This document shows positions 6,001 to 52,300 of a DNA stretch of 64,000 nt, piece by piece. Source of the stretch: Owenia fusiformis. Its lineage: Eukaryota. Under the pieces are notes generated by a model. It was not told the DNA's origin and did not search any database. It saw only the letters and a program-made list of their open reading frames with translations. The translations under genes and the position numbers were made by a program. Where the stretch lies: assembly GCA_903813345.2 (NCBI GenBank), contig CAIIXF020000001.1, positions 21,700,001 through 21,764,000 on the forward strand, in the 5' to 3' direction. Within the stretch, counting starts at the first letter, position 1. The number at the start of each line of letters is the position of its first letter.

Positions 6001-9000
6001 CAGCTGGGGACCAAAATGCCGCTGGAAGTAGGGACTCTGTTTAAGAGAATAATGTACCAACAGAAAGGGATTTTTGTTATGCTTTGAATGGAACAAGTTT
6101 GAAGAAAAACGGTGCAGTACGAGACTCGTAATCCTTGATTTTCAAACATCCGGTAGGTCAAAAATTCAAATTAACAGTCGAATTAGTACCGCGTGATATT
6201 GCACAATACAATCATATATCAAATATTTCGATTGACATTTTCCAAATGTTTTGTATCCACATTTCTTTGAAAGTGGTGAACTACCTTAAAGTAGTTTCTA
6301 ACGCTGTATATACAGGAACTGATCCATTGTTTCAGTTGTGATGCTGACATATGAAAGAGAGGCTGTCTTGATGAATGCTATAGCAAGGCTGAAAGGTCTG
6401 CCTCATCTGAACAGAGTGGTGGTTGTGTGGAATAGTCCCAAGCCACCTGCTGAGGATCTCAGGTGGCCTATCATAGGAGTAGATGTACATGTAAGAATAT
6501 ATAACTTCAGATATTAAACAGCATTGCAGGTCAAACTTCTACGAACTTCTACAGATTTTCTACAAATGTTGCAAAAGACCAAGTCAGGAAAATGTTATGT
6601 AACAAACAAAACTAGGATAGTAAGTAGCATTGTTCTAACCTTCAACTGAAATGAACTTGGTTTGCCATACATTTCCATTCTTATGCTTAAATTAGCCTTC
6701 TTTGTTTGTCCAGGTGATTAGAACAGAGAAGAACAGTTTGAACAACCGTTTTCTACCATATGATGTCATAGAAACAGAGGCTATCTTGTCAATAGATGAT
6801 GATGCCCATCTCAGGCACGATGAAATCATGTTTGGATTCAGGTAATGAATCTTTCCAGTCAAAATAAAAGTTGTATTGTTAACAGTAGAGAGATATCACA
6901 CTTAAGAGAAATATTTATGAAACCATCAAATGAGCTCTTAAATATGCTAAATGGAGAGATACAGCATATGTTCACTGGTTAACAGCCACTTGACTCAAAG
7001 TAAAGCTGAAAGTAACATTGGTGGATCAGCCATTTGGAAAATTTGAGATTATAAGAGATGCTAACTTCTTTATACAACTGTACTAGTTTTTTCTGACCTA
7101 GCTTTTTTCATGAATGAAGCTTTGCATCAAAGTCTATTGTTGATGTGAATTGCAGGCAAATTCAAAATTCTGTTTTTCTAGATTTCTTGTTTCTAAATGT
7201 GGTTCAGATTTATAGATGTCGCATTGGTATTACAGTATATTACAAAACATTGATCCCATTTTACCATGTAATGTGTGCATGCACATTTATTTGGCCTCAG
7301 AGGCAACAGCACAACAACATGTATTTACCATACAGTATTATTTAGTTTTTATGTCACCACAAACATATGCATAATAAGTGTCATCAGTCTTATTGAAGCA
7401 AGCTGATTGTTAACAAGCTTCATTTGGCAATTTTTTCAGGGTGTGGCGTGAGAATCGTGAAAGAATCGTAGGATTCCCAGGACGCTTCCATGCTTGGGAT
7501 CTTGATCATGATAGCTGGTTGTACAATTCTAACTACTCATGTGAACTCTCTATGGTACTCACTGGTGCTGCATTCTTCCACAAGGTATTAATAAAATCAC
7601 CTTCCACTCTCTTAGTCAAAATGAACCCCACTGTTATTAACATGAACTATTTTTTAATGAATTTTTATTAAAGGTTTATCTTAAGAGTATAAAATGATGC
7701 CATCGTACTGTACTCTTATGATTGCCATCGTACTGTACTCTTATGATGCATATAAATTTAGTTGTAAGAACTTGAATATTTTATTTGGAGTTTCTATTTT
7801 AATGTTTTGCAGTATTATGCCTACCTATACAGCTATGTGATGCCTCAGGCAATAAGAGACAAGGTGGATGAATATGTTAACTGCGAGGACTTGGCTCTTA
7901 ACTTTCTAGTCTCCCATATCACTAGACAACCTCCAATTAAGGTAACTATTTCACTCATTGATAAACACCTTCTATTAAGGTAACTATTTCACTCATTGAC
8001 ATACACAGTCCTATTATGGTAACTATTTCACTCATTGACATACACAGTCCTATTAAGGTAACAATTTCACTCATTGACATACAACCCTCTATCAAGGTTG
8101 CAACTTCTCTCATTGCCAGACAACTCCCTATTAGGGTAACTGTTTCAAATGGCAAATATTCATGTTGTCCACTCTATAGTAAGGGATATACAGTGTACTC
8201 TTATGGTCATTAATAACAAAACGTGTTCATCTGGCAAACACTTCTTTCTAGTGAATGACAGAACCTATTGATAGTGAACAAATTTCAGAGGAGAGTCAAT
8301 TTATTTCTGTGTAAAAACCATCTGTGAGCTGAGCACTTTTTATGGTTCCATATTAGTCATTATACACAGGTTTTACTGTATAAAGAGTCAATAGAAGATG
8401 ATATATACCGCATATCATTTCACTTTCTTCATGTTTGTTTCTTTTGAAGTTTTATATTATATATATTGCTCTGAACACCCAATATAGGTTCGATAAACCA
8501 GTGAGTAAACATTCTAACTCGTGTAAAACCACATTTCTCGTAGACTCTCATGGCACTTTGTTGATGCACACTTGTCCTTAGCATCAACTCATCATAGTTG
8601 TACTTTTTGCAATAGTCTATTACAAAATTAACCATCAAATCAGCTAGTCCATTGCCCCTGTAATCAGTTGCTACAACCACACGCGTAAGTTCACCTCGCT
8701 TGCCAACATCCAGTTCATTTACACCAATAGAGCCAATAAGTTTCCCCCTGTGGAAGAGCAGCCATAATTTATGGTCATGTTCTGTCCAATATTCTACAAA
8801 ATTGTGATAATCGCTCAGTTTGGACAGCTCCCAAAGTAGAACACCCCATACTAACAAGAAATACAATATGGAGTATAACCCCAACAGGAATATGAGTCCG
8901 TTCATCAATGAGTGTCTCATTTGGTATAAGGTTCCAGCTGCTAGTAATGCTAATACACTGCTAACCTTTGGATGGAATAATTTGCCTTTCATCATTATTG

Positions 9001-12000
9001 GAACTGGTTCAGTGTATGAGGTTAAGGCCATTTTCTTCACTTCTTCCCAGTTGTCTATATTTGGGTCAAACAGGCGTATCTCAAGTTCATCTCGTTTGAC
9101 TCTTATTGGTGGTTTGTTGCTCATGTTGAATAGACCTAACATTGTGCCTGTAAATATAATCATTATGTGATTCATTTTCCCTCATTTATTTTTTTAACTT
9201 TAATTTGTGGTTTGTTGCTCATGTTGAATAGACCTAACATTGTGCCTGTAAATATAATCATTATGTGATTCGTTTTCCCTCATTTATTTTTTTACTTTTA
9301 TTGGTGGTTTGGTCTTGATGTTGAATAGGTCTAACATTGTGCCTGTATTAATATAATCAAGCAGATTCCCTTATTTTTGAAAATTACAGTTTTGAATATT
9401 CAATAATTATTTCTTATTCAATATTCCGATAAAGCATTAGGAATTGTTTGGAACATACAATCGCTTTGAAATCTAAATCCCAAATGTTCAGGATAACTTT
9501 CAGAAATCAGTGATCATGGTGTCATAGTGCAGTAGTTTAGTCATCATGTTATACTTACATCGAATCACTTAACCAGGTCTGCCTCCCTTCAGCATTTACT
9601 TTTTCTTTATAAATATCTGTTACTAAAAATCTTATTCATAGTCACATAGTTCACCTAGTCAAGTAGCATTCTCAACATTACAGTACATGAGAGTATACCA
9701 AGGACATGTTGACCTATCAATAGTGATTAGATGAGCATTGTACAATTGTGTCACATATGCACATAATATAACAACAGTACATAATGTCAAATGAATGATG
9801 AGCTCACAAAGTAAAACACCCCATACTAACAAGAAATACAATATGGAGTATAACCCCAACAGGAATATGAATGCTTTCATCAATGAGTGTCTCATTTGGT
9901 GTAAGATTCCAGCTGCTAGTAATGCTAATACAATGCTAACCTTTGGATGGAATAATTTGCCTTTCATCATTATTGGAACTGGTTCTGTGTATGAGGTTAA
10001 GGCCATTTTCTTTACTTCTTCCCAGTTGTCTATATTTGGGTCAAACAGGCGTACTCAAGTTCATCTCGTTTGACTTTTATTATGTCACCACCAAAAGTGG
10101 TGACATATTGTTATGGTCTCCGTTTTTATGTCACCACCAAAAGTGGTGACATATTGTTATGGTCTCCGTTTTTTTGCGACGGCGGTTGGCGTCCGGCGGT
10201 TGGCGTCCGGCGTAAGGCGGTTGGCGTCCGGCGTCTGTAACAATTTCTTACAACTTCCTATAACTTAACAAATACTGTTTAGACTGACTTCAATTTTTTT
10301 CTAAATCATCTACATGTTCTCAGAAGTTCAAATCTGACTTTAGATTTGACATTTGACCTTCAATGACCTTCTCAAGGTCAAAAAGGTCTTTTTTCAACTT
10401 GCTTAACATTGACTAAATTTTTTTCAAAATCATCTACATGTTCTCAGAAATTCAAATCTGACTTTAGATTTGACATTTGACCTTCAAATCTGACTTTAGA
10501 TTTGACATTTGACCTTCAATGACCTTCTCAAGGTCAAAAAAGGTCAAAAAGGTCTGTTTTCAACTTGCTTCAAATTGACTAAATTTTTTTTTCAAAATCA
10601 TCTACATGTTCTCAGAAATTCAAATCTGACTTAAGATTTGACTTAAGATTTGACCTTCAATGACCTTCTCAAGGTCAAAAAGGGTCAAAAAGGTCTGTTT
10701 TCAACTTGCTTCAAATTGACTAAAAAAAATTTTCAAAATCATCTACGTGTTCTCAGAAATTCAAATATGACTTTAGATTTGACTTAAGATTTGACATTTG
10801 ACCTTCAATGACCTTCTCAAAGTCAAAAAAGGTCAAAAAGGTCTTTTTTCAACTTGCTTCAAATTGACTAAATTTTTTTTTCAAAATCATCTACATGTTC
10901 TCAGAAATTCAAATCTGACTTTAGATTTCACATTTGACCTTCAATGACCTTCTCAAGGTCAAAAAAGGTCAAAAAGGTCTTTTTTCAACTTGCTTCAAAT
11001 TGACTAATTTTTTTTTTCAAAATCATCTACATGTTCTCAGAAATTCAAATCTGACTTTAGATTTGACATTTGACCTTTAATGACCTTCTCAAGGTCAAAA
11101 AAGGTCAAAAAGGTATGTTTTTAACTTGCTTCAAATTGACTAAAAAAATTTTTCAAAATCATCTACGTGTTCTCAGAAATTCAAATCTGACTTTACATTT
11201 GACTTAAGATTTGACATTTGACCTTCAATGACCTTCTCAAAGTCAAAAAAGGTCAAAAAGGTCTTTTTTCAACTTGCTTCAAATTGACTAAATTTTTTTT
11301 TCAAAATCATCTACATGTTCTCAGAAATTCAAATCTGACTTTAGATTTGACATTTGACCTTCAATGACCTTCTCAATGTCAAAAAAGGGGTATTTTTTCA
11401 TCTTGCTTCAAATTGACTAAATTTTTTTTCAAAAGCATCTACATGTTCTCAGAAATTCAAATATGACTATAGATTTGACTTAAGATTTGACATTTGACCT
11501 TTAATGACCTTCTCAAGGTCAAAAAAGGTCAAAAAGGTCTGTTTTCAACTTGCTTCAAATTGACCAAATTTTTTTTTCAAAATCATCTACATCTTTTCAG
11601 AAGTTCAAATTTGACTTTACAAGTTCTCAGAAATTCAAATCTGACTTAAGTTTGAACTCATAATATTGTGAGCAACTAGGTGGTGACATTTTGTCATGTT
11701 AATGCCTTGTTTGTGGTTTGTTGCTCACGTTGAATAGACCTAACATTGTGCCTGTAAATATAATCATTATTTGATTCGTTTTCCCTCATTTATTTTTTAA
11801 CTTTTATTGGTGGTTTGTTGCTCATGTTGAATAGACCTAACATTGTGCCTGTAAATATAATCATATGTGATTCGTTTTCCCTCATTTTTTTGAATATGAT
11901 ATTTTATCAAATATACACTTTGGTTTCTCATGAAATATGAGGAAAAAATTAAGCAGTTTGAAACTAAATAGACTGATTCCATAAAGACAATTTTTTTTTA

Positions 12001-28900: not shown

Positions 28901-30444
28901 TCAGGCCAATAACTCAAATTCTGATGGGCTGATTTGTTTATATTTACTATGCATATATGCCTTATGGGATAAACAGCATATTAGCCAATGTTCATTTATT
29001 GAATAAGTTCTGTACAAAAGTCCAAAGTTTCAAAAGGGCCACAATTGTCCTATCAATTTTGTCCCATAATGTTGTTGATACTCGCACACACCTTTAAAAA
29101 ACATTGAAATAATTTATTTTAGGCTGTTAAGTACAGCGACATCTAATAATGTAAAGAAACATTTTTTACCAATACCATATTTCCTACTACTGTTAATTTT
29201 ACCAGTTTAAGAAAATACAGGTATATAAAGTCATAATAATAATTAACAAGGCATTAACATGACAAAATGTCACCACCTAGTTGCTCACAATATTATGAGT
29301 TCAAACTTAAGTCAGATTTGAATTTCTGAGAACTTGTAAAGTCAAATTTGAACTTCTGAAAAGATGTAGATGATTTTGAAAAAAGAATTTGGTCAATTTG
29401 AAGCAAGTTGAAAACAGACCTTTTTGACCTTTTTTTACCTTGAGAAGGTCATTAAAGGTCAAAAGTCAAATCTAAAGTCAGATTTGAATTTCTGGGAACA
29501 TGTAGATGATTTTGAAAAAAAAAATTAGTCAATTTGAAGCAAGTTGAAAAAAGACCTTTTTTGACCTTGAGAAGGTCATTGAAGGTCAAATGTCAAATCT
29601 AAAGTCATATTTGAATTTCTGAGAACATGTAGATGATTTTGAAAAAAAATTTAGTCAATTTGAAGCAAGATGAAAAAATACCTTTTTGACCTTTTTTGAC
29701 ATTGAGAAGGTCATTGAAGGTCAAAAGTCAAATCTAAAGTCATATTTGAATTTCTGAGAACATGTAGATGATTTTGAAAAAAAAATTTAGTCAATTTGAA
29801 GCAAGTTGAAAAAAGACCTTTTTGACCTTTTTTGACCTTGAGAAGGTCATTGAAGGTCAAATGTCAAATCTTAAGTCAGATTTGAATTTCTGAGAACACG
29901 TAGATGATTTTGAAATTTTTTTTTAGCCAATTTGAAGCAAGTTGAAAACAGACCTTTTTGACCTTTTTTGACCTTGAGAAGGTCATTGAAGGTCAAATGT
30001 CAAATCTAAAGTCAGATTTGAAGGTCAAATGTCAAATCTAAAGTCAGATTTGAATTTCTGAGAACATGTAGATGATTTTGAAAAAAAATTTAGTCAATGT
30101 GAAGCAAGTTGAAAAAAGACCTTTTTGACCTTGAGAAGGTCATTGAAGGTCAAATGTCAAATCTAAAGTCAGATTTGAATTTCTGAGAACATGTAGATGA
30201 TTTAGAAAAAAATTAAAGTCAGTCTAAACAGTATTTGTTAAGTTATAGGAAGTTGTAAGAAATTGTTACAGACGCCGGACGCCAACCGCCGGACGCCAAC
30301 CACCAACCGCCGGACGCCGTCGCAAAAAACGGAGACCATAACAATATGTCACCACTTTTGGTGGTGACATAAAAAAACGGAGACCATAACAATATGTCAC
30401 CACTTTTGGTGGTGACATAAAAACGGAGACCATAACAATATGTC

Positions 30445-32301
30445 GGCAGGGCTGCCCCGTTTCTGCAATTTCATTCATATTATGCTGTGAAGTTATGTCT
30501 TTGAAAATAGTTCAAAATAAAAAAATAAAGGGTATAGAAATTGATAACATAGAATATAAAATTTCACAATCAGCAGATGACACATCATTATTTATCAAAG
30601 ATAAAGCATCCATAAGTGAAGCATTAAAAACTATAAAACAATTCTCGAAATATTCGGGACTTCAACTAAATTTAAGTAAAACAGAAGGAATATGGCTTGG
30701 AACCAATCGTACTTTTGAAAAAAAATTTGAAAATATTAATTTTACAGATGAACCTGTAAGATATTTAGGCATATATATAGGTCACAATGAAGATAAATGT
30801 TATGATTTAAATTGGAATGAGAAAATAAATGACCTTGAAAAAATTCTTGATTCTTGGAAAAAAAGACACCTTACCTTATTTGGAAAAATCACTGTTATAA
30901 AATCTTTAGCTATATCAAAACTTATCTACTCAGCATCAATTTTATCTTATAAAGAAGAAATTATAAAGCGAATAAACAACTTGATATTCAACTTTTTATG
31001 GAATGGCAAGAAAGACAAGATTAGGCGAACTATTATGATAAACAATATAGACAATGGGGGTCTAAATATGCTGGATTTAGAATCACAGCTAAATGCTCTT
31101 AAAGCTGTATGGATTACCCGTATATACGACAAAAACAATATGTTTAACAAAATTCCATACTTTTATTTTGACAAACTTGCTCCAAGTTTGGATATTTTGT
31201 TAAAAATGAATGTATTTTCTAAAGACAAGCTTGAGGGATTACCTATTTTCTACAAACAAGTTTTGAAAGCATTCAATAGCTGTAAAGATCTTGATGAAAT
31301 AAAAAATCTGAAACACCATGAAATAGTCCAGCAAACCATATGGAATAACAGATTATTTCAATTAAAAGGCAAACCACTTTTCTTTAAATCTTGGATAGAT
31401 AGTGGTATTATTTATGTCAAAGATCTTATCATTCGAAATGATTTTTTAAATGTAAACTATATTCTAGAAAAATTGAGGAATAAAATAAATTGGATTTCAG
31501 AATATTTTCAAGTCTCAATTGCAATGAAATCAATAAAAAAAATCATTAACATAGAACAAGCAAACTTCACAAATATATCAAGAAAACTCAATTTCAAAGT
31601 AAAAAATGTTCAATTAGATTTTAGAGGCCAAAAATCCAATTTCTTTTATAACATATTGAAGAATAAAAAATCTGAAAAATGGTTTGTCTCAAAAAAATGG
31701 GAAAAAGATTTCTGTATAACAAATCAATGTAAAATAGATGAAATAAATTGGCAGAATTTTTTTGTTAGCAAGATCATCAAGATTAAAGACAAAAAAGTTG
31801 CCAATTTTAATTTCAAACTAATTAATAACATACTTCCTGGGTTAACTGACTTATTTATCTATGGTATAACAAATTATTATCATTGTAGTATTTGCAATCA
31901 CTTATGTGATTTGAAACATATTCTTTTTGAATGTTGTTTGTCAAAGAATATATGGAAATTTATATACAACACATGTGGTCTCAATATTTCGTATAGAAAA
32001 ATAATAATTGGTTATAATGGCCAAGACTCTCAAACTAATTTTCTGAATTATTTTACAAGTATAGTTGCTTACAGCATTTACAAATCCTACATTTTAGAAC
32101 TGAATAGTAAAGAACAAAGAACATTTGAAAAGATACTTTTTATGTTAAAATATGAAATTAATTGTAGAAAAAATTTGTATTATTGTTCCAAATGGAATTT
32201 ATTATCCAAACTACTGCAATGAGATTATGTAAACCTGTTTTTATAAATCATGTACTGTCTATATATTTAGTAAATGAATGAAATAAAGACTATTTTAAAA
32301 G

Positions 32302-32330
<29 letters not shown>
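30445..32330 (+). mobile_element. 5'-truncated non-LTR retrotransposon of the L1/Tx1 group
   Basis: Begins within RT motif QGCPVS. AATAAA at 32282 is followed by about 29 A. Flanked by a perfect 15-bp TSD ccataacaatatgtc (30430-30444 and 32331-32345). Confidence 0.93.
30447..32222 (+). pseudogene. Truncated LINE ORF2: C-terminal reverse transcriptase, thumb and CCHC zinc knuckle
   Basis: Uninterrupted frame: QGCPVS, SQSADDT, SGLQLNLSKT, RYLGI, LTLFGKITVIKSL, FLW, GGL, and CSICNHLCDLKHILFEC. Endonuclease and N-terminal RT are absent. Confidence 0.9.
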
Positions 32331-32332
<2 letters not shown>

Positions 32333-32573
32333 ATAACAATATGTCACCACTTTTGGTGGTGACATAAAAAACGGAGACCATAACAATATGTCACCACTTT
32401 TGGTGGTGACATAAAAATGATATAATCTTTCTTTTTTTTTATTTGACATTTAAAATTAATTACAAATTATTACAGGTAACACCAGTCCATGCATGTGAAA
32501 CCTCATAAGAATGTAAATGATATGATCAATATCATATCCTCCACATATTGGATTTCTGGAGTATATTGTAGTA

Positions 32574-33003
32574 TTATCCTTCACTTAGTGTACTAAATGT
32601 GTAATAACATTAAAAAAAAAATATCGTAACGATATACTCCGGGTGGAGGATATCGTGACGATATACTCCGCTTGTTGATTTCCTGCCAAATTGACTCTAT
32701 TTGGCATGGAATTCATTTTGCAATGATATTATTATACATTTAGTACACTCCTTGTAAGTGTAGGATAATAAGAACATCCTATGATTTTTTTCAGAATATC
32801 ATTTTAATCTACTCGGTGATATTGATATATGCACTCGTTCGCTTCGCTCTCTCGTGCAGATATCAATATCACCTCGTAGATAAAAATGATATTCCTCAAA
32901 ATCATAGGATATCCTATAAATATCCTCCAGTAATTCATTTTTCCAATAGATATCAAATTTATTTTTAATGTTATCATATGTTTAGTACACTAAGTGTAGG
33001 ATA
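32574..33003. repeat. Nested inverted repeats including a foldback (32776-32911) with a GCTTCGC loop
   Basis: Outer arms cacttagtgtactaaa / tttagtacactaagtg. Inner arms atcctatgatttt..ggtgatattgatat / atatcaatatcacc..aaaatcataggat. Loop gcttcgc at 32841-32847. Confidence 0.75.
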
Positions 33004-34863
33004 ATGGTACATGTCTAGTAAACATAATTACACAATGCATGCATAATATGCTTATCATATATTTGTAAACTTGATCACATGACAGCTCTTGATCAATCAA
33101 CTGAGTAATATTGCATTGAAACAAACTACAAATAATAATATATAACTGGTATATAATGTATATACATGCCCACCATAATTAAATACATTGTAAAGTGTTA
33201 CATTTTTGGTTTGCTATATACTTTGAGCTCATCAGTGCTGGCCTAATACTACCATTTTCTCCAATTGTGAGAATAAAAACTGAAACAAGGTCTTCATGCG
33301 GGAAACATTGACCACATTTACCAATACAAATTAGTATGAAATATGATAATTACTTTGTACATTTCTATAATATCATGTTATACCCAGAATATTTTTTAAA
33401 CTGGATGCAAAATTCTCATTTTCTGTTAACTGTATTCTGATCAAATTCTGCTCAAATTCTCATCATCATAGGAAAATATAAGGACTATGTACAGGGGTGT
33501 AACCAGGCCTCAGGATCTCAAATTGGTGAGGCAAATTTAATTAGGTGAGGCAAAAATTGATTTAAAGCCAATACAATAGTGTCCTGACACTGCATGTACA
33601 TTGTGTTAATTGGAAAATACATTCATTATATTTTTTCGAAAAATTTTGCCTTGCCTGACTCATCCCTGGTTTACTATACCTAGTGGTACTACCTATTGTA
33701 ACAGACACAAATTACATAAAGTACATGGTAAATTTGGCACATCATTTGAACAATTGTAGTTTAATATCATTACTTTGGTTCAACAGATCTTCAGTTCTAT
33801 TTTGATTATACTCAATGTATAATGTCAAGAAATAATACTGTTGGTATAATTGTAAAAATAATAATAAAAAGCATACCTGCACATCTTTCACAAAAAATAT
33901 TGCTCCTGATGTCTGGAGTAACACAGGTTTTCCCCAAATATTTTTTACATTCACTGTTATTTTTCTCATTCTGCAGAATCATATAATGTACAACATGCCA
34001 TCATATGATTTGGTCAGGTACACAATAATCAAGGGCCTCATTGCTGAGGAGACTTGAATATTTTAAAAACATGGAGAGTATGACATATTCATTCTTACTA
34101 ATTACCAGAAAACATCAGCGGGAATTATCACACAAGGTTTTATATCATGTGACATGTGTTAACCAATCACAGGATGAGAAACACAAAAGTGGGAAATAAA
34201 ATGTTATATTTCACACAGTGTAAAATAGTTACACTATATTTCTTCAAGAGAATTTATGAATTAAATGCTGAATATCATGATACTAATCCATACAATACAT
34301 CCCAAGTTTTCAGGTAATACCATATTGACCTTAGAATAAACCCCATATTTAATCCCTGATCACACATAAAAGAACACAGGAACACAGGTTCCTGGGTCTG
34401 CCTTCCATGTTTACATTCATTGGTGATAAACAAGATACAATACAATACATATTGGGTTGATTGTTCATCTATAGGTTGGTTCAGAAACATACATACCCTG
34501 GAAAAAAACTTTCAAATGTGTGATCCAGCCTCTCTATATTGGCTTGATTGTTCATTGATAGGGTGATCTAGAAGCATGCAGCCCCTAAAACTCATTATCT
34601 ATATGTCCTAGATGTTGGTCTCATTTTCTGAATCGATTTTCTTCAATGATCGAAGTAAATCTTGATAATATATTCAATAAATAATCAAATTCAAATTGAT
34701 TGATTCTTCTGATCCAGGATCAAACCATGCAAAAGATCTGATCTTACATAATGTTATTTATGCTCTGTATAACTCATCAATGATTGATTCCTTTGTTTGT
34801 ACATGAGCTAGGGTTTAACTTTGCATTGTAAACAAGACCCTTTAATGTCTCAATCTGTCATGG

Positions 34864-37800
34864 TCACACAGGCATTTGTGGACTCCTGTCATTATCCAAA
34901 TCCCGCACCTGGAAAATAGTGAAGAAATAAATATCAAATGAAAATCATGCAAACACTTTTGAAGAGAAAAGTGGATTTAAACGATCTTGATCTTCACCCT
35001 GGAATAGCCTGACAACGGTAAAGTCAGATACCGTTGTCACAAATGGCAGACATAACCATCGCTTCAATTAGATTTTCATAAACTGTATGTTTAATAGAGC
35101 ACCTAGACTAAATTCCTTTGGAACAACAATCAATCAAAGTGTTTAAAAACTCATTTTTCAGTTAATAATGTACCATCGAAATAAAGTCTTTAATTTAACC
35201 GATCAAAATGAGATACGGGACAGCGGACACTGTAATTACCATATGCCGTTGTCTTTCTAAATTACTCAAATTCAGACTCTGTGTCATTGACAATATCAAA
35301 GACGCTATATTGTGGCGATTCACGACTCAATTTGATCGAAAATGGGATATGAAACATTATCACAAGAGCTTAATGCAGGCACAGAATTAGCGACGATAAA
35401 ATCCCATGAAATGAGTACCAAGTGATTAAACAGTTGAAGCGACTGTTATGTCTGCCATTTGTGACAACAGTATCTGACTTTACTGTAGTCAGGCTATTCC
35501 GGTGTGATCTTGAGCTGACTGTAAAATAACTCACATCAAGTATCCAGATTGCCCGCTTGTGCCTCCAGTCTACATAACTTTTATATAATAATACTTGATT
35601 ATTCTTACATATTGCATGTCCTTATCTTATACAAAGTCCCTTAAAATGTTGATATTTTAACAGTTCTTGTACTAGTTTTATTTACTTATTAACTTATAAC
35701 CAGCAATATCTCTTACCTTAGGACATACACATGGTAGACAACAGCTGAGGAACTTCCGTAATAGTTGGAGTTCCCCGAAGAAAACGGTCTCGTAATATTC
35801 CATGAATGCGAGGAATATGATAAAGAGGCCAAATGAGATGAGGACAGTGAGCGTGACATGGACTGGAAACATTGCACTTCCCGGCTGAAAGTAAACAGAA
35901 TATCAAAATTGAACACCAACCACCACCACAAAAAAATTGGAGACCATAACAATGTGTCGCCACTTCTGGTGGTGACATAAACATCATAACATTTGACCAT
36001 TAGTAATTTAAAAAAAAATGTATTTTTTGAGGAATGACTTTTGGTGCGCAGTAATGCTGAGACTGCACTAAACTAAATAGCTGTACATTTATATGTTACA
36101 TACACATACATTGAATGTGTGATTGGTACTGGGTATGACCCTGCCCCCTAGCCCCCACCCTCCCATATTCACCAGTACATACATTGTACAAAGCATACAT
36201 TGAATATGCGTGGTACTTACTGGGTATGACTCTGCCCCCCTTCCCTCCCCCATATCCACCAGTACATACACTGTACAAAGCATACATTGAATATGTGTGG
36301 TACTTACTGGGTATGACCCTGCCCCCTACCCCCCATATCCACCAGTTCACACACTGTACAAAACATACATTGAATATGTGTGGTACTTACTGGGTATGAC
36401 CCTGCCCCCTACCCCCCATATCCACCAGTTCACACACTGTACAAAACATACATTGAATATGTGTGGTACTTACTGGGTATGACCCTGCCCCCTACCCCCC
36501 ATATCCACCAGTTCACACACTGTACACAACATACATTGAATATGTGTGGTACTTACTGGGTATGACCCTGCCCCCTACCCCCCATATCCACCAGTTCACA
36601 CACTGTACAAAACATACATTGAATATGTGTGGTACTTACTGGGTATGACCCTGCCCCCTACCCCCCATATCCACCAGTTCACACACTGTACAAAACATAC
36701 ATTGAATATGTGTGGTACTTACTGGGTATGACCCTGCCCCCTACCCCCCATATCCACCAGTTCACACACTGTACAAAACATACATTGAATATGTGTGGTA
36801 CTTACTGGGTATGACCCTGCCCCCTACCCCCCATATCCACCAGTTCACACACTGTACAAAGCATACATTGAATATGTGTGTACATACTGGGTATGACCCT
36901 GCCCCCTACCCCCCATATCCACCAGTTCACACACTGTACAAAACATACATTGAATATGTGTGGTACTTACTGGGTATGACCCTGCCCCCTACCCCCCATA
37001 TCCACCAGTTCACACACTGTACAAAGCATACATTGAATATGTGTGTACATACTGGGTATGACCCTGCCCCCTACCCCCCATATCCACCAGTTCACACACT
37101 GTACAAACCATACATTTAATATGTGTGTACATACTGGGTATGACCCTTCCCCCTACCCCCCATATCCACCAGTTCACACACTGTACAAAGCATACATATA
37201 TATGTGTGGTACTTACTGGGTATGCCCCCCCTGCCCTCCCCCATAAGCACCAGTACATACACCGTACAAAACATACATTGAATATGTATGGTACTTACTG
37301 GGTATGACTCTGGTAGGTTCCACTTCATGGCGTAGCCTTTGATAAAAAGAATAACTGCAGCTATGAACACAATCATGCTCAGTATCGTGAGTAGGAAAAA
37401 TCTGTATACCTGAAGACAAATGATTATTTTAGATTTAATACAATCAGTTTTACTAAAACAGTTCATATGTGTGTCTTAAGGTATTTATCATAGAATTATG
37501 CACCTCATTGAAATCCTGTATTCTGAAAGCTTAAATGCATGTTACTGTACAATGACTTTTAAATTTTCAGATATTTGAGGAATTTTTTGTCTTCTATTCT
37601 AAGCATACCCCTAGGTGTCAGAGAAAAGGATGTCTAAAATCTAGAAAAGCACCTGATAAAATATCATATGTGATGCATATGGCAGAATACTTGAAATATC
37701 ATGTGCGATTACCAAACACAAAAACATCATGAACGTGAGATGCAGTGCATGATGAAGAAGTGGGTTCATTTACTGTCCCATAAGTACTGTCATTTTCTAT

Positions 37801-39351
37801 ATATCTACTGTACATAATGTGCCACTGCATTAAGAAGACCAACAGAAGTGCCACCAGATCTTAATGATCTCATTTCAAACATGATTTATGTAGCATCCAC
37901 CTGACCACTCATCCACTTACACAAACCATCGGTACAACACAATGACAAAATACACTTTTCAAAGTGTGATAAAAAATGGGTCTAGAAAAAGGTAGAGAAG
38001 AACTTACTGTAGACTGTCTTTTACTGATGGAAGACCTCACTGCTGTGCTTCCTGTGATGATTAACTTGAATAAACAAACACCAGAGTAAAATACATGTAT
38101 AAAAATTGGAGCAAAATTGGAACATTTTACAGTATTTTGAATAAACTTTTTTTATCAAGAAACATGTACAAGGATTATGGGAATGTAAAGTCATAGATTG
38201 GATGTGGAAGGGACACATTAATAATTATGAATAACACTGTACATGTAGCCACTTAAACATTGCATTTGACTTGATTCATTTAACACTTTAAACCAAATAA
38301 TGTTCATCCTCCTTGCATACATTATGAAACATGGCACTGGTATATGGAAACTTTTAATGCAATCTATTATACACTCACGATTGCACCTGTCCATAGACCA
38401 ACTCCAAACAAATTAGCATGCCCTAAGTTCCAGGTATATAGACTTCCACTTGTATCATCAAATAGTGGAATGACAAACACCTCGGCAACACCTGGAATAT
38501 AGAAAAAATTATGGCAATCAACTCCCTCTCTCCCTTCTGCAAATTCCCCCTTGAATATAGGATAAATCTCCCCCTTGAATATTGGATAAATCTTACTGAA
38601 TTCCCTAGGAAGAGTAAGACAAATCAAATGTCAATAGGAATAGAATAAACATTTCTTACTGTAAGAGGCTGAGAATTTAGATTATCTATCCTGAAATCTG
38701 TTTTATGAAATCTTGAATCGGTTCAATGACATGGTACACTGAAACCCAGAGGATAGTTTAACTCTCCCTTACCCTTTTCAGATAAAACCTTCCCTCATAG
38801 ATACATAGTCAAACTTTTGCAAAGGGATGTCAAAGGAAAGTTCATAGATACATAGTCAAACTTTTGCAAAGGGATGTCAAAGGAAAGTTCATAGATACAT
38901 AGTCAAACTTTTGCAAAGGGATGTCAAAGGAAAGTTCATAGATACATAGTCAAACTTTTGCAAAGGGATGTCAAAGGAAAGTTTGATGCATTTAGTCATC
39001 TTACTGGTGATTATTTTGTTTCTTGGATTGTCAGACTTGTGGTTGGACCTCATTGTTACATATAATATGTGACCCTACAATTAATCATCATTTCTAAATA
39101 GAAAACTGTTAATCAAACTAACCTGCTAAAACAAGTAAGAATCCAGTTACAATTTGAACTATTCCTATATTGAGTGGCCATTTCTCCAGATCAGAAGCCC
39201 TTGGCCTGATGTACTGTGGTGGATTATGGAATGATGCCCCAGCATTGGGGAATGTGGTTAGTGTCCCTCTGACATTAGACGGGGTATCATCAATGCTAAT
39301 TTCAACTTCATCGACCTCCTCCAGGATAGGGTTGGTGTCGACAGTTGCCAT
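34864..39351 (-). CDS. Four-transmembrane CD20/MS4A-like protein; 6 coding exons, 240 aa
   Basis: Exons 39351-39123, 38491-38379, 38064-38008, 37409-37299, 35884-35717 and 34908-34864 are GT-AG and phase-consistent (723 nt). Motifs IGIVQIVTG and GLWTGAILIITGS resemble MS4A TM1/TM2; a Cys cluster follows TM4. An acceptor at 39367 implies an upstream UTR exon. Confidence 0.82.
34995..35506. mobile_element. MITE with about 75-bp TIRs, CAC...GTG ends and a 5-bp TSD (Transib-like signature)
   Basis: caccctggaatagcctgac..gttgtcacaaatggcagacataac pairs with gttatgtctgccatttgtgacaac..gtcaggctattccggtgtg. ATCTT is duplicated at 34990-34994 and 35507-35511. Confidence 0.82.
35938..35980 (-). repeat. 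Solo, diverged HINE terminal hairpin module
   Basis: ggagaccataacaatgtgtcgccacttctggtggtgacata matches the hairpin module with 3 substitutions; no satellite is attached. Confidence 0.8.
36105..37310 (-). repeat. 83-bp GC-skewed minisatellite (about 14 units) spanning the exon 4 donor of the MS4A-like gene
   Basis: Unit on the minus strand: gtcataccca|gtaagtaccacacatattcaatgtatgttttgtacagtgtgtgaactggtggatatggggggtagggggcagg. Central units are nearly identical. Confidence 0.95.
38796..38983. repeat. 47-bp perfect tandem repeat, 4 copies
   Basis: catagatacatagtcaaacttttgcaaagggatgtcaaaggaaagtt at 38796, 38843, 38890 and 38937. Confidence 0.95.
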
Positions 39352-46300: not shown

Positions 46301-49300
46301 AAACTCTTTTGGGCAGTCCCAGTTGCGTTCTGGTAGGTTTATAAACCTACTCAGTGCTAAGAGAAAAGAAACAGGACCCAGTTGGTACCTCTTTAACTGG
46401 ACAATGATGATGTGTTGCAGATTTTATCTCTAGAAACCTCGTTTTCATCTGACTGTATTTCCAAATTGCAACCCAGTGTTGGAGATGCAACAATATATTT
46501 TTAAATGATTGTCAAGATCAAGAAAAGTCAGAGAAAACCGTAATCGGGAAATTTCAGAATTTCCTCAAAATGGTTAAAATAGTCGGGAAATTTTAGAAAT
46601 TCCAAAAACTACTATAAGGTTATTACAATATTATTGACCTTCATTGCCAATACTTTAATAGAAATACAGCTCTTTAATATGAATACAACCATGAAACACA
46701 ATAGCTCTGATCTACTGGTCAAATATCAATATTTTCTATTTGCAGACCTGGAGAACACATTGGATGTGAATTCATTATTATTCATCTGCATTTACCTCTT
46801 AATCTATAACGAGTTCTTTAGTTTGAAAAGACGGAACAAGTTTGTCAATAAGAAACCTCTGTTGCTAGCTTTTAGCTCATAATGGTGCCTTAGTTTCTAA
46901 TGAATGATATAAATATATCTATTAATAATGTTGAAATGTCTATAATTGATTTTGGTTCGTAGCACTCATATTTTACTTGAAAATATTAACGAAATTAGAG
47001 ACTTGTGAAATGATGATGTTTTCCTTAAATAAGAGATATTAATGTATAAATTTTTGTGAAGATCAAGCAATGTCCATATTCCATCAACATTTAGTATGTG
47101 AAACCTGTTAAGTGAAACACTTCTAGAAGCGGAACACCTCTGTTACTAGAACAACACTGAACCTGTATAAATGGAACATTTTTTAGAAGTACCAAATATG
47201 TTCCACTTAGACAGGTTTTACTGTATATACTGTCTTTGAAAAGTTAATGTTCTATTCCAAAATGACATAAGCATCATGAGCGTCATTTAGGCCTGATGGG
47301 CCCAGTTTAGATCCAGATCCTTCTTAATACTGGTAAAGGTTGAGGATTCTGCAGAAAAGTAAATTATCTGTACATGTATCTGGTTTTGTGCAGACATTTT
47401 GCGGTTTCTTACTTATGTGGTCATATAGCCAGTTGTACACATTGGTATTTTGGATTCTAGCAAATCCCCTAATGGTATCATCTTGAAATCCAATTTTTCA
47501 AACAATTCATGTTTAAACCAGTGGTTCATGAACCCAAATAAATAGTTTACTCAAATCTTATTTAGGACTGCGGGTGGGCTTAGGTAAGACTGGGACAAGT
47601 ATAGGAACTCTTTGTACTGCCCACCAGTGTGTAAGACTGTGTTTAAAATTATTTGAACCAGACCTACCTTTAAACATGGAATTAGACTTTATTGATTAGA
47701 TAAAATGTTCCGATCTCACAAGCAGTTCAATAGAACCATATGGGGTATTCATTGAGTGATTTCAATAGAGTTTTACCCTTATATTGTGAGACTGCTCAGC
47801 TATGATATGCTCTGATATAAAGTCTTGAATTATTTTATTTTAGGCTTGTTCAAGATTGAATCATTGTGTTTAATAAACCAATCTATTTCAAAAATAGCCA
47901 TTGGGTTGTTCAAAAAGTTTTGAATGAAAGCCTCTCAAAAGATATTTTTAGTTGTTTTCTTTTTCAAAAGTGATATTGATCACTGTGTCATCCTCTTTGT
48001 CACCATATCAACCATTAAGTGTTAATTAAGAAAAGAGTATACATGTACATGAAACCAATAGCAGTAGAAGTGAATTAGGTGGGGGCAACTACCCGACAAC
48101 AAGAACAAGATTGGTTCATTATTTTAATAGCTAGAAATATTTCTGTCAAACATTTTGAATGACCCTGATATTAAATGTCCTTTGGGAAAAATAAGAAAGC
48201 AAATGCAAAAGCATTTGAAATATTATATGGATGGACGTTTTGAGTAAAACAAAGATAATCTGAAAATTGAAAAAACGACATATTTGATGTTCACAAAAAC
48301 AAATGTATAGATGTATATAGCCATTATACATATAATATATATACAGTAAAACCTGTCTTTGTGAACACCTATGTCTAGTGAATACACAATAATTGAAAGT
48401 GAAAGAAGGAAAAGAAGAATAAGAAAAATAGAGAAAAAATATTTTATACTTCATTGTTTTCAGTACATCTACCTCTGCATTAAATACATGACAAAAACAT
48501 TTAGAAACATATCTCCACACCATTGATTTATTTTAATGAACTCAATACCTCTAACATGTTACCTCATAGACTTTTATTCAGCTGTCATCAGATTATTTCT
48601 TATCAGATTATCTACTGAACATTTTCTTTAAAATATAATGTTCTAAATAAATATTGTTTGTAAGGAATGAAAACAAAATTCAAATTAATGAAAATCTAAG
48701 AGTAGGTCAACAAGATGGTGTTTGAAGGTTACACAATATCCTATTAATTTAATATTTTAATTCAATATTTTGCTTCAAATTAGGTACAACTTTAAATGGG
48801 TCTTATTGAAATGTCAAGAATTGTTAATATAAACCAGGGTTGAAATTGTTGTATGGATCAAGTTTGAGTATTGCTTTAAGGATTTATGCTTATGTTATGC
48901 TAAAGCTAAGATATCAATCAATTGATAGAATTGTTATAAATTGAACTTCAAGTTATTATGTTTTAAACATATTTGGTTTCATGTGATTCCCAAAATATTT
49001 ATAACATGAAATCTGTCATATTTCTCCAAAATCCAGTTCTTATAAAAAATATATTTTTATTATCTCACGGTGCAGGTAGATGACACAAATTATATACCTC
49101 CAATTGACAGTCATATTGTAGTATTTTAAATGAGGCGCTACAAAAAAATTATTTATAATTGTAATAAATTATTATGTCACCACCAAAAGTGGTGACATAT
49201 TGTTATGGTCTCCGTTTTTTTTATGTCACCACCAAAAGTGGTGACATATTGTTATGGTCTCCGTTTTTTTTTATGTCACCACCAAAAGTGGTGACATATT

Positions 49301-52300
49301 GTTATGGTCTCCGTTTTTTTGCGACGGCGGTTGGTGGTTGGTGGTTGGAGGTTGGCGTCCGGCGTCTGTAACAATTTCTTACAACTTCCTATAACTTAAC
49401 AAATACTGTTTAGACTGACTTCAATTTTTTTCTAAATCATCTACATGTTCTCAGAAGTTCAAATCTGACTTTAGATTTGACATTTGACCTTCAATGACCT
49501 TCTCAAGGTCAAAAAGGTCTTTTTTCAACTTGCTTCACATTGACTAAATTTTTTTTCAAAATCATCTACATGTTCTCAGAAATTCAAATCTGACTTTAGA
49601 TTTGACTTTAGATTTGACATTTGACCTTCAAATCTGACTTTAGATTTGACATTTGACCTTCAATGACCTTCTCAAGGTCAAAAAAGGTCTGTTTTCAACT
49701 TGCTTCAAATTGACTAAATTTTTTTTTTAAAATCATCTACGTGTTCTCAGAAATTCAAATCTGACTTAAGATTTGACATTTGACCTCCAATGACCTTCTC
49801 AAGGTCAAAAAGGTATTTTTTCAACTTGCTTCACATTGACTAAATTTTTTTTCAAAATCATCTACATGTTCTCAGAAATTCAAATTTGACTTTAGATTTG
49901 ACTTTAGATTTGACATTTGACCTTCAAATCTGACTTTAGATTTGACATTTGACCTTCAATGACCTTCTCAAGGTCAAAAAAGGTCAAAAAGGTCTGTTTT
50001 CAACTTGCTTCAAATTGACTAAATTTTTTTTTCAAAATCATCTACGTGTTCTCAGAAATTCAAATCTGACTTAAGATTTGACATTTGACCTTCAATGACC
50101 TTCTCAAGGTCAAAAAAAAGGTCTGTTTTCAACTTGCTTCAGATTGACTACATTTTTTTTCAAAATCATCTATGTGTTCTCAGAAATTCAAATCTGACTT
50201 TAGATTTGACTTAAGATTTGACATTTGACCTTCAATGACCTTCTCAAAGTCAAAAAAGGTCAAAAAGGTCTTTTTTCAACTTGCTTCAAATTGACTAAAT
50301 TTTTTTCAAAATCATCTACATGTTCTCAGAAATTCAAATCTGACTTTAGATTTGACATTTGACCTTCAATGACCTTCTCAATGTCAAAAAAGGTCAAAAA
50401 GGTATTTTTTCATCTTGCTTCAAATTGACTCAATTTTTTTTTCAAAATCATCTACATGTTCTCAGAAATTCAAATATGACTTTAGATTTGACATTTGACC
50501 TTCAATGACCTTCTCAAGGTCAAAAGGTCAAAAAGGTCTTTTTTCAACTTGCTTCAAATTGACTAATTTTTTTTTTCAAAATCATCTACATGTTCTCAGA
50601 AATTCAAATCTGACTTTAGATTTGACATTTGACCTTTAATGACCTTCTCAAGGTCAAAAAAGGTCAAAAAGGTCTGTTTTCAACTTGCTTCAAATTGACC
50701 AAATTTTTTTTTCAAAATCATCTACATCTTTTCAGAAGTTCAAATTTGACTTTACAAGTTCTCAGAAGTTCAAATTTGACTTTACAAGTTCTCAGAAGTT
50801 CAAATCTGACTTAAGATTTTTTTAACTTGCTTCAGATTGAACAATTTCTTTTTTCAAAATCATCTACAAGATCCCAGAAGCTCAAATCTTCAAAAACCTT
50901 CTTAAGGTCAAAAGGTATTTCCCAACTTGCTTTAAATTGACCAAATTGTTTTAGGTGGTGACATTTTGTCATGTTAATGCCTTGTTATTAATTTGTAGGC
51001 TACAGCTAAGTTTCTTCTGCGTCGCACCAAGAAGAAGCTCAATACACTTCCAAAGGAAATGGCTCATGGCAGGTAATACATGCATATTTCGTAAAAATAG
51101 GTCTGAAATTGAAAGAGACCATTCTTTGTAAAAGTCACAGTAATAGATCCATATAGCTTCAGAAAGTCTTGCAATTCAAATGATCCCAGCTTTATTTTAA
51201 TTTCTATTTTTGTTCTACATTTTGTCCCTAATTGCATTTGTCTTGTATGTACTAATTACATTTGTATTAATTATTCATGAAATATAAATCGATTTGAAAA
51301 AAAATGTTTTGTTATAGCTGGAGCAAGGAATACAGAAAAGATATTGTTATTGATATATTAAAACTGATTTTTTTGCAGGAGCATGATGAAAAATGTGCGA
51401 CTGGGACATGGTCTGTTCTACATGATCAACAAAGAGAGACATGACAAGGTAGAATATCATTATTTAGGAGCCCTTTGTTATTTTTTATGACCCATTGGGT
51501 AGCATTATTTATAAGCTTTATTTTACTAAAAAAGATTATCTATTTGTGATCACTGATTAGTATCATTATTTGTGAGTCCTTTGGTAGCATTCGTGACCCA
51601 GGGGTTCAGATCTTAATAAAAAGAACTCTGAATATAAGAGATAAGGCTCAGTATATTAATTATATTAATTATTATTTTTCTACAAGATATAATGAAGATC
51701 ATTGAGAGTGAATTACATTTATACCAATGCAGCTAAAACTTGTTGAATGAAATGGAGTCATAATTGAAGATTCTTCTTGGCATTACTTCAAACTTACCTT
51801 GTCACATTCTTTTGATGATTAAACTCTAACTTTCATAAACATGAATTTAAAGATATATAATAGTCATATTCAAAAAAACTCTACATTCAAATTATTTGAA
51901 CTCTATGGCATATCAGGTTAAATTAATGCCAAATATGGAGGTCAATGTTCTCTTGGTCTTTAAGGTCATAGCTGACTTATATGATAATGAAAATGTGAGT
52001 TTTTGTTTTGAAAATGTGAGTTTTTGTTTTGTTTTATTACTAAAATTTATAATCAATAGATTAGGCACTAAGTTCAGAACATACCATGAAAACAGGAGAG
52101 GGGGACTTTGAGTTTTCAATCTCAAAACAATTGAACAGATTATTTTGTCTTACAATATTCAAAACATGTGCTAATTTAATCCTATAAGCACAGAGTGTTG
52201 TCTATACACAAATGTACATATATTGTGTGTATTCTAGGAGCAGGTAAACATTACAGATTAGAATCCTCCTTATCTGAATGCAACCTTTTATCAAATTATT

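Follow-up and report, generated by a model that had tools for sequence, protein, structure and literature searches.

The nested arrangement found in the 64,000-nt stretch of DNA analysed here (the window) is best explained as an ordinary insertion, in which target-primed reverse transcription placed a copy of an L1-group LINE in a non-autonomous Helentron-type element (HINE); a probability of about 0.75 is given to this reading. The LINE interrupts one of the tandem hairpin modules of its host, and this site is most likely a chance event in a HINE-dense region, picked post hoc for its striking look. It is probably no sign that the family has a specific target.

The LINE Fragment and the Hallmarks of Its Insertion

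The LINE fragment (30445–32330, plus strand) is 1886 nt long, 5′-truncated and the only copy of this LINE in the window. It carries an open reading frame of 591 codons plus stop (30447–32222, plus strand), in which the reverse transcriptase (RT) motif QGCP is followed by xADD and by a C-terminal CX2CX7HX4C motif. Measured from stop to stop, the open frame spans 30390–32222 and comprises 610 codons, of which 591 are encoded by the LINE, with the stop codon at 32220–32222. The fragment ends in a pure A-run of 29 nt (32302–32330, plus strand) and is flanked by a perfect target site duplication (TSD) of 15 nt, ccataacaatatgtc, the left copy of which lies at 30430–30444 and the right copy at 32331–32345. 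The open frame, the pure poly(A) and the perfect TSD had been reported in a preliminary description of this DNA, and they have been borne out with small corrections of coordinates and labels only. The same is true of the junctions, which read atgtc|accac (within the stem arm of the hairpin) and ggaga|ccata, with an A-run a few bases upstream. The LINE is antisense to its host, and in-silico excision of the LINE together with one TSD copy yields a module identical to its neighbours.

Some latitude exists in the reading of the junctions. The final A of the 29-nt A-run could be of target origin, and the TSD can be counted as 16 nt when the preceding a is included or as 14 nt if its last c represents junction microhomology.

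The insertion would have proceeded in four steps. The endonuclease of the element would nick the minus strand at 5′-TTATGG(T)^(T)CTCC-3′, a site within the module's 21-nt spacer, and reverse transcription would then begin at the poly(A) tail, with no more than one T paired. A second cut, 15–16 nt off on the plus strand, would fall within the stem of the hairpin (atgtc^accac) and give rise to the 15-nt duplication. Finally, synthesis would stop early, inside the RT domain, so that the new copy would be devoid of the endonuclease and of half of the RT and thus dead on arrival.

Three other histories of the locus were considered and rejected. Insertion of the HINE into the LINE is contradicted by the TSD and the A-run, which bound the LINE, and by the restoration of the module upon excision. 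A TSD of 62 nt, duplicating a whole module in a host with three original ones, would need an extra indel because the A-runs of the spacers differ (5 vs. 6). As for an endonuclease-independent insertion at a pre-existing nick, the clean 15-nt TSD favours staggered cuts instead.

Classification of the LINE

The RVT_1 profile of Pfam is matched by the fragment with an E-value of 2e-10 and a score of 41.1 bits, above the cut-off of 29.6, over profile positions 121–204 of 205 only, that is, over its C-terminal part. The closest full-length relative, P0001 (1248 aa), is 60% identical to the fragment along P0001 residues 663–1246, and P0001 in turn matches human L1 ORF2p across residues 3–885 with an E-value of 2.8e-83, as compared with 7e-14 for R2. 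Both an APE and an RT are present in P0001, and the APE-type endonuclease domain PF03372 is carried by this protein and by most of 96 longer relatives. The truncation point corresponds to P0001 residue 663; the fragment thus lacks the endonuclease as well as the N-terminal half of the RT. The CX2CX7HX4C motif occupies residues 480–496, and its C480, C483, H491 and C496 are invariant in all 25 aligned sequences; the zf-RVT profile of Pfam scores under its cut-off on the fragment (E 0.27). Judged by sequence comparison, the LINE is an element of the L1 group (L1/Tx1), and the identity to P0001 and the match of P0001 to human L1 ORF2p uphold the assignment made in the preliminary description. The closest entries of the protein database reach 60% identity where longer proteins are considered and 58% where the length is similar, from which it follows that the LINE family itself is absent from that database. 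Protein-pattern scans with the 591-aa fragment likewise retrieved no copy of the family from metagenome, viral or genome contigs.

Anatomy of the Host HINE

The window contains three HINE copies and one relic module. The host (copy A) extends on the minus strand from 29245 to about 32417 and has the LINE nested inside; its end is placed at 32417 because the loose ends of reads behind 32418 are diverse in sequence. Its right (3′) flank (29245–29305, minus strand) begins exactly where the sequence shared by the three copies begins, and contains the 3′ subterminal inverted repeat (subTIR) atgtcaccacc (29267–29277 on the plus strand), the palindrome tgaca-ttt-tgtca and the terminus ...gccttgtt. 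A central array of ~136-bp tandem repeats follows at 29337–30212 (Tandem Repeats Finder), and the same array is found in copies B (10483–11619) and C (49425–50754). Next comes a GC-rich, microsatellite-like segment of gacgcc/aaccgcc units (30271–30323), which separates the central repeats from the hairpin modules; it is also present in copies B and C and is variable in length.

The hairpin modules are four tandem units of 46–48 bp, each consisting of a 5′ subTIR, an inverted repeat (IR) and a 21-nt spacer. Modules m1 (30324–30370) and m2 (30371–30418) and the left part of m3 (30419–30444) make up the minus-strand segment 30324–30444; beyond the LINE, the right part of m3 (32346–32365), the outermost module m4 (32366–32412) and an A/T-run terminus form the 5′ end of the HINE (32346–32417, minus strand). 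The interrupted module is thus the second of four when numbered from the 5′ terminus, and m4 shows 100% identity to both m1 and m2. An intact module and terminus outside the LINE had been proposed before, and m4 indeed provides them, both HINE termini being intact despite the LINE. On the other hand, the earlier count of four tandem modules holds for the host, where the LINE splits m3, but not as a fixed number, since the three copies of the window have two, three and four modules.

Each hairpin has a stem of 10–11 bp (atgtcaccac/gtggtgacat) and a ttttg loop. Folded as DNA, it reaches −10.4 kcal/mol (z −4.2), a value that none of 200 shuffles attains. Ten matches to the hairpin pattern lie in the window, where shuffles predict 0, and the pattern of the 21-nt spacer, for which 0 chance matches are expected, has no mismatch in nine of its 10 matches there. 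A 37-nt pattern of the module had no match in genome or viral contigs.

The two subTIRs, atgtcaccacc at 29267–29277 and ggtggtgacat at 32402–32412 (and likewise in every module), are complementary at 11 of 11 positions; for HINEs, a length of 11 bp or more is a criterion for these subterminal repeats (PMC4067079). The order of parts (5′ subTIR and IR, microsatellite, central tandem repeats) is that of DINE-1 and Cg_HINE, copy A being on the minus strand. Together, these features bear out the view that the host is a non-autonomous element of Helentron type, as far as its sequence tells. The modules are not a 3′ hairpin of such an element: they lie 2–5 nt from the terminus and are followed by the microsatellite and, farther in, by the central repeats, an arrangement that agrees with the 5′ end of the published HINE/DINE-1 layout (5′ subTIR plus IR), and the reading of the hairpin as a Helentron 3′ stem-loop was rejected. 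At the 3′ end, where a HINE would have a short stem-loop between subTIR and terminus, there is only the 5-bp palindrome tgaca-ttt-tgtca, which overlaps the subTIR, and the fold of the 61-nt 3′ end is unexceptional (z −1.08; 28 of 200 shuffles fold as well). HINEs are further characterised by insertion between T and T with no TSD; T-rich termini are found in all three copies, with T2–5 followed by atgtc... at the 5′ end and ...ccttgtt at the 3′ end.

Abundance and Age in the Reads

HINEs occupy 7.6% of the window and hairpin modules 0.76%, whereas genome-wide, as judged from the reads of sample S16, modules make up about 2.2e-4 (~0.02%) of the letters, a value that is a lower bound. Reads were mapped to the window on both sides of 32290–32343, the segment of the A-run tail and the 3′ junction. 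Of the six contig pieces listed over the LINE in run X5, three (150, 144 and 150 nt) match the window at every position, two (275 and 317 nt) deviate from it once and one is a variant with 15 differences. The depth of these listed pieces (600–1438), set against that of two single-copy-like contigs at 33206–33489 (42), suggests a family of very roughly 14–34 copies. The LINE family appears, on these sequences, to be young and recently active.

The HINE copies seen in the reads end after any module and often lie head-to-tail; for example, behind 30374 about 500 loose ends per run read into the opposite HINE end. No loose end was found at 30445 among the rows listed (24 of 2379). Sample S16 (runs X16–18) has a depth of about 0 at 33055–33506, and its reads nearly all differ from the window at the 40 LINE positions listed. 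It probably contains neither the insertion locus nor the LINE subfamily, and is therefore uninformative on the frequency of the LINE insertion.

Chance Insertion or Target Choice

Several observations agree with a chance event. The remaining nine intact modules of the window carry no LINE. The 80 metagenome loci with relatives (27–47% amino acid identity) include four groups, each made up of members of one family, and unrelated flanks are found in four of four; the tails are A-rich or AAT-repeat in three groups, and the fourth shows a tailless divergence. None of the 80 metagenome loci has any likeness to a HINE, and no RNA gene (Rfam) was found in the 40 of them that were scanned.

A target-specific family would account for the site differently. 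Its endonuclease would recognise the conserved spacer or the hairpin of the HINE 5′ module, insertion in this safe harbour would be recurrent, and a large share of independent copies would have (a)ccataacaatatgtcacc behind the A-run or would lie elsewhere in HINE modules. The nick, TATGG(T)^(T)CTCC, differs from the L1-type TTTT/AA and adjoins a T-run of the primed strand, 6–7 nt away, that was left unused, which is a point against the ordinary reading as well as one for specificity. The perfect conservation of the target, with the nine mismatch-free spacers of the window, also fits a specific family. In addition, with modules at ~0.02% of the reads, a chance insertion by one small family is improbable at face value: about 0.006 chance module insertions are expected from a family of ~25 copies, although this figure ignores the post-hoc selection among all retroposon insertions. 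Transposon-targeting Tx1 families do exist (PMC4494074), and L1-like LINEs of bivalves have been filed as Tx1 (PMC10294476), a precedent that counts only for a bivalve host. Against all this, only a single copy is at hand, and its long pure poly(A), 15-nt TSD and 5′ truncation are what L1 insertions generally show. Moreover, the flanks of the relatives examined, distant as these are, are unrelated, and the find was chosen post hoc from a HINE-dense window. A target-specific family is accordingly held to be unlikely, and it would be surprising if a young Tx1-like LINE family used the thousands of redundant HINE 5′ subTIR/IR modules as a safe harbour.

Insertion might also be biased by structure or region without being sequence-specific, either through a preference for hairpin-prone, AT-rich repeats or through retention in gene-poor, HINE-rich regions. 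The second-strand cut falls within a stable hairpin stem (−10.4 kcal/mol), the module density of the window is ~35-fold above the read-based genome average (0.76% vs. 0.022%), and the segment 32490–33054, which adjoins the HINE terminus, is itself a high-copy repeat according to the reads. However, it is the unpaired spacer and not the hairpin that received the first-strand nick, and a bias of this kind is considered improbable. Finally, a mobile HINE+LINE composite, in which m4 would serve as the 5′ end and rolling-circle transposition would carry the LINE along and inflate its copy number, is very improbable: the termini and outer module preserved outside the LINE, the HINE copies ending after any module and often head-to-tail, and the multicopy X5 contigs identical to the LINE of the window would suit it, but the summed X5 depth approximately doubles in the direction of the 3′ end of the LINE, as expected from independent 5′-truncated retrotranspositions and not from a fixed composite, and no record spanning the junction was present among those listed.

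Significance

As an ordinary nested insertion of textbook type, the locus is chiefly of use as a dated marker, in that a young LINE is nested in a HINE, and it also shows clearly the anatomy of a HINE whose 5′ hairpin unit has been multiplied in tandem. If targeting of the hairpin were true, the transposon-targeting habit of the Tx1 clade would extend to rolling-circle elements. This LINE would then be the first known case of a retrotransposon that targets rolling-circle transposons, with possible hitch-hiking when the composite is mobilised, and its family would be a natural source of an endonuclease whose recognition site is both new and defined. Helitron or Helentron targets are not mentioned in section 15 of PMC4494074, and a literature search found no paper on a LINE targeting them among the matches listed, partly judged by title and abstract.

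Comparison with Known Systems

The host agrees with Cg_HINE of Crassostrea gigas and DINE-1 of Drosophila in the order of the parts described for them (PMC7492417, PMC4067079): a T-rich 5′ end, an 11-nt 5′ subTIR 2–5 nt from the terminus, a complementary IR 5 nt off, then a GC-rich microsatellite and a central tandem-repeat array, and a right flank of ~60 bp with the 3′ subTIR, a short palindrome and a TT end. It differs from them in the tandem repetition of its 5′ subTIR/IR unit (2–4 copies), which is absent from the layout described there. A search of one supplementary file of PMC7492417 for the subTIR motifs found none, so that it gives the host no link to a named Cg_HINE family. With human L1, the LINE shares the poly(A) tail, a TSD of ~15 nt, 5′ truncation, target-primed reverse transcription and the C-terminal Cys/His motif; in contrast, its first-strand nick lies outside TTTT/AA, and its kinship to L1 is read via P0001.

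Many families of the Tx1 clade are target-specific, some of them for DNA transposons, as reviewed in PMC4494074. For example, Tx1 (Tx1L) of Xenopus inserts in Tx1D, a non-autonomous piggyBac transposon, and the crocodilian Tx1-Mar and Tx1-9_AMi target Mariner-N4_AMi and Harbinger transposons (PMC4494074). As in the pair Tx1/Tx1D, an L1-group LINE is found here within a multicopy non-autonomous DNA transposon. The target site in Tx1D is an internal tandem repeat unit. The specificity of Tx1, however, is known from many copies and from endonuclease biochemistry, whereas here there is one copy, classified at the level of the L1/Tx1 group only, and the present host is a rolling-circle element of Helentron type rather than a piggyBac transposon. 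The preference of Tx1-Mar and Tx1-9_AMi has likewise been shown over many copies (PMC4494074), in contrast to the one copy of the window. These elements make transposon targeting by Tx1-clade LINEs an established kind, to which a HINE would add a new target class.

The nested insertion

Sequence reading of positions 29400-33200, together with a repeat scan, has confirmed the hairpin array split by a retrotransposon that the preliminary description reported. Four tandem hairpin units (modules) of 46-48 bp apiece, each consisting of a 21-nt spacer (cggagaccataacaat...) and the hairpin atgtcaccac/ttttg/gtggtgacat, are present, and one of them is interrupted by 1886 nt of foreign DNA (the LINE, 30445-32330, plus strand). 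This insert ends in a pure A-run of 29 nt; a direct repeat of 15 nt without mismatches, ccataacaatatgtc, bounds it at 30430-30444 and 32331-32345. Removal of the insert and one repeat copy leaves a unit that matches its neighbours exactly; therefore, the LINE entered the repeat and not vice versa. The direct repeat would measure 16 nt with the preceding a, or 14 nt if its last c were junction microhomology; the LINE frame requires a c at this position for the conserved R of RQGCP. A 62-nt duplication of the entire unit is less parsimonious because the A-runs of the spacers are unequal (5 versus 6). The DNA fold of the hairpin (-10.4 kcal/mol, z -4.2) was equalled by none of 200 shuffles.

The open frame extends from 30390 to a stop at 32220-32222 and holds 591 LINE-encoded codons. 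Its match to the Pfam domain RVT_1 covers the C-terminal portion only (profile positions 121-204 of 205, E 2e-10). The top full-length relative among 5.8 billion proteins searched, P0001, has 1248 aa with an APE endonuclease and a reverse transcriptase (RT), and is 60% identical to the fragment across its residues 663-1246. Since the alignment is confined to these residues, neither the endonuclease nor the N-terminal half of the RT is present in the window copy, which was never autonomous. P0001 matches human L1 ORF2p (E 2.8e-83, residues 3-885) far better than R2 (7e-14), and the CX2CX7HX4C residues at the C-terminus are invariant in all 25 aligned relatives. Judged by these matches, the LINE is assigned to the L1 group, and it is at this level that the earlier L1/Tx1 assignment holds; in one account, L1-like LINEs of bivalves are classed under Tx1 (PMC10294476), a lead that would apply here only if the host were a bivalve.

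The host element

The same non-coding Helentron-type element (HINE) is found in the window as copies A (29245-~32417, plus strand), B (11711-~10080, minus strand) and C (50993-~49172, minus strand), and as one relic module (35938-35978). aacaaggcattaacatgacaaaatgtcaccacc forms one end of all three copies, which also have in common a central ~136-bp tandem-repeat array, a GC-rich microsatellite and hairpin units, the latter repeated 4 (30324-30444 and 32346-32412), 2 (10080-10173) and 3 (49172-49320) times, respectively. The relic (35900-35985) consists of a microsatellite remnant followed by one diverged unit, which departs from the two search patterns by 3 and 2 mismatches; the rest of the HINE is absent.

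In two published descriptions of DINE-1/HINE elements, the 5' subTIR and a complementary IR close to it are followed by a microsatellite, central repeats and a right flank of ~60 bp that contains the 3' subTIR and a short palindrome, and the termini are T-rich (PMC4067079; PMC7492417). This order, also that of the oyster Cg_HINE, agrees with copy A read on the minus strand. In that reading, 2-5 nt separate the 11-nt subTIR from the terminus at the hairpin end, against 22 nt at the opposite end. Therefore, what was described as the terminal hairpin is a tandemly multiplied 5' subTIR/IR unit. The same two observations rule out a Helentron 3' stem-loop, which in this HINE is at best a 5-bp palindrome (fold z -1.08). 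Thus, the Helentron-type host and the terminal position proposed previously are upheld, and the hairpin itself is reassigned to the 5' end.

Relative to the HINE, the LINE runs antisense; it occupies the second unit counted from the HINE 5' terminus. As already described, a spare module lies outside it: the outermost unit (32366-32412) and both HINE termini are undamaged, and because of this the structural premise for the composite moving as a unit holds. Among the read loose ends listed, HINE elements terminate after any module. In each raw run, about 500 reads (loose ends at 30374) run off the end of a unit and, a few bases on, enter the opposite end of the HINE (..aacaaggca..), so head-to-tail HINE tandems seem to be common in the genome.

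The window contains other repeats. Next to the HINE terminus, 32490-33054 is a high-copy repeat whose depth reaches ~800 in a raw run; its internal inverted repeats (32567-32620 versus 32958-33011; 32776-32910 self-complementary) give it a MITE- or foldback-like appearance. Copy A thus either abuts this repeat or is nested in it. Copy B is flanked by 97-98-bp tandem arrays of one consensus (9105-9359 and 11713-11891), so a satellite-like array may be interrupted here by the copy and a further ~720 bp of different sequence. Short arrays at 36146-37312 (83 bp x 14), 38795-38983 (47 bp x 4, perfect) and 58607-58983 (75 bp x 5) could belong to other HINE families as their central arrays.

Copy number and subfamily

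The LINE is represented in 15 runs from 5 studies of one organism. Of six contig pieces listed over the LINE in run X5, three are identical to the window, two have a one-base difference and one, a variant, differs at 15 positions. Depths of 600-1438 for these pieces, where two single-copy-like contigs (33206-33489) have 42, point to a family that is young and numbers, very roughly, 14-34 copies, or half that if 42 represents one haplotype, with the caveat that read and contig depths are not copy numbers. Summed X5 depth increases about two-fold toward the LINE 3' end, as expected for 5'-truncated copies.

In the raw-read sample S16 (runs X16-18, ~14,600 reads per run placed on the window), mean LINE depth is ~53 and the depths of the three hairpin loops that could be counted add up to ~7,800-7,900, that is, ~150 modules per LINE copy; modules make up ~2.2e-4 of all letters read. 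At 40 listed LINE positions (30445-31725), S16 reads are nearly all unlike the window, whereas X5 contigs are identical to it at high depth, and over 33055-33506 all three raw runs have zero depth. S16 thus seems to be without the window locus and its LINE subfamily, which appears restricted by lineage or population. Within 33055-33506, X5 has two contig variants of ~280 nt at depth 42 each, with 0 and 23 differences, respectively; together with the zero depth in S16, this suggests presence/absence or very high allelic divergence at the locus.

Chance or targeting

The nesting is best read as a plain chance insertion (probability about 0.75). The proposal that the family targets the HINE hairpin as a safe harbour is improbable, although several observations favour it. 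The minus-strand first nick, at TTATGG(T)^(T)CTCC, departs from the L1-type TTTT/AA site despite a T-run 6-7 nt off, as had been noted. The spacer is perfectly conserved (0 mismatches in 9 of 10 window matches), and Tx1-clade families targeting DNA transposons are established, the targets reported including piggyBac Tx1D, Mariner-N4_AMi and Harbinger (PMC4494074). A ~25-copy family would be expected to give only ~0.006 chance hits in modules, a figure that ignores the post hoc choice of this case from among every retroposon insertion encountered in a very large scan. This choice itself argues against targeting, as do the module content of the window, ~35-fold above the genome average (0.76% versus 0.022%), and the generic L1 signature of the insertion. 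Metagenome relatives, all distant (80 loci, 27-47% identity), weigh weakly in the same direction: flanks are unrelated in each of the four groups with at least two same-family copies, HINE-like sequence was found at 0 of the 80 loci, and RNA genes in none of the 40 scanned. A structural or regional insertion bias is just as doubtful.

Comparison with known elements

In the literature searched, no report of a LINE targeting Helitrons or Helentrons was found among the papers listed, as judged by title or abstract; the supplements of PMC4494074 may name more targets. LINE-in-transposon nesting is ordinary, and Tx1 families that target transposons have already been published. The tandem multiplication of the 5' unit is the one feature absent from the HINE/DINE-1 descriptions compared (PMC4067079; PMC7492417): these describe a single subTIR/IR, whereas the unit is multiplied in the window copies.
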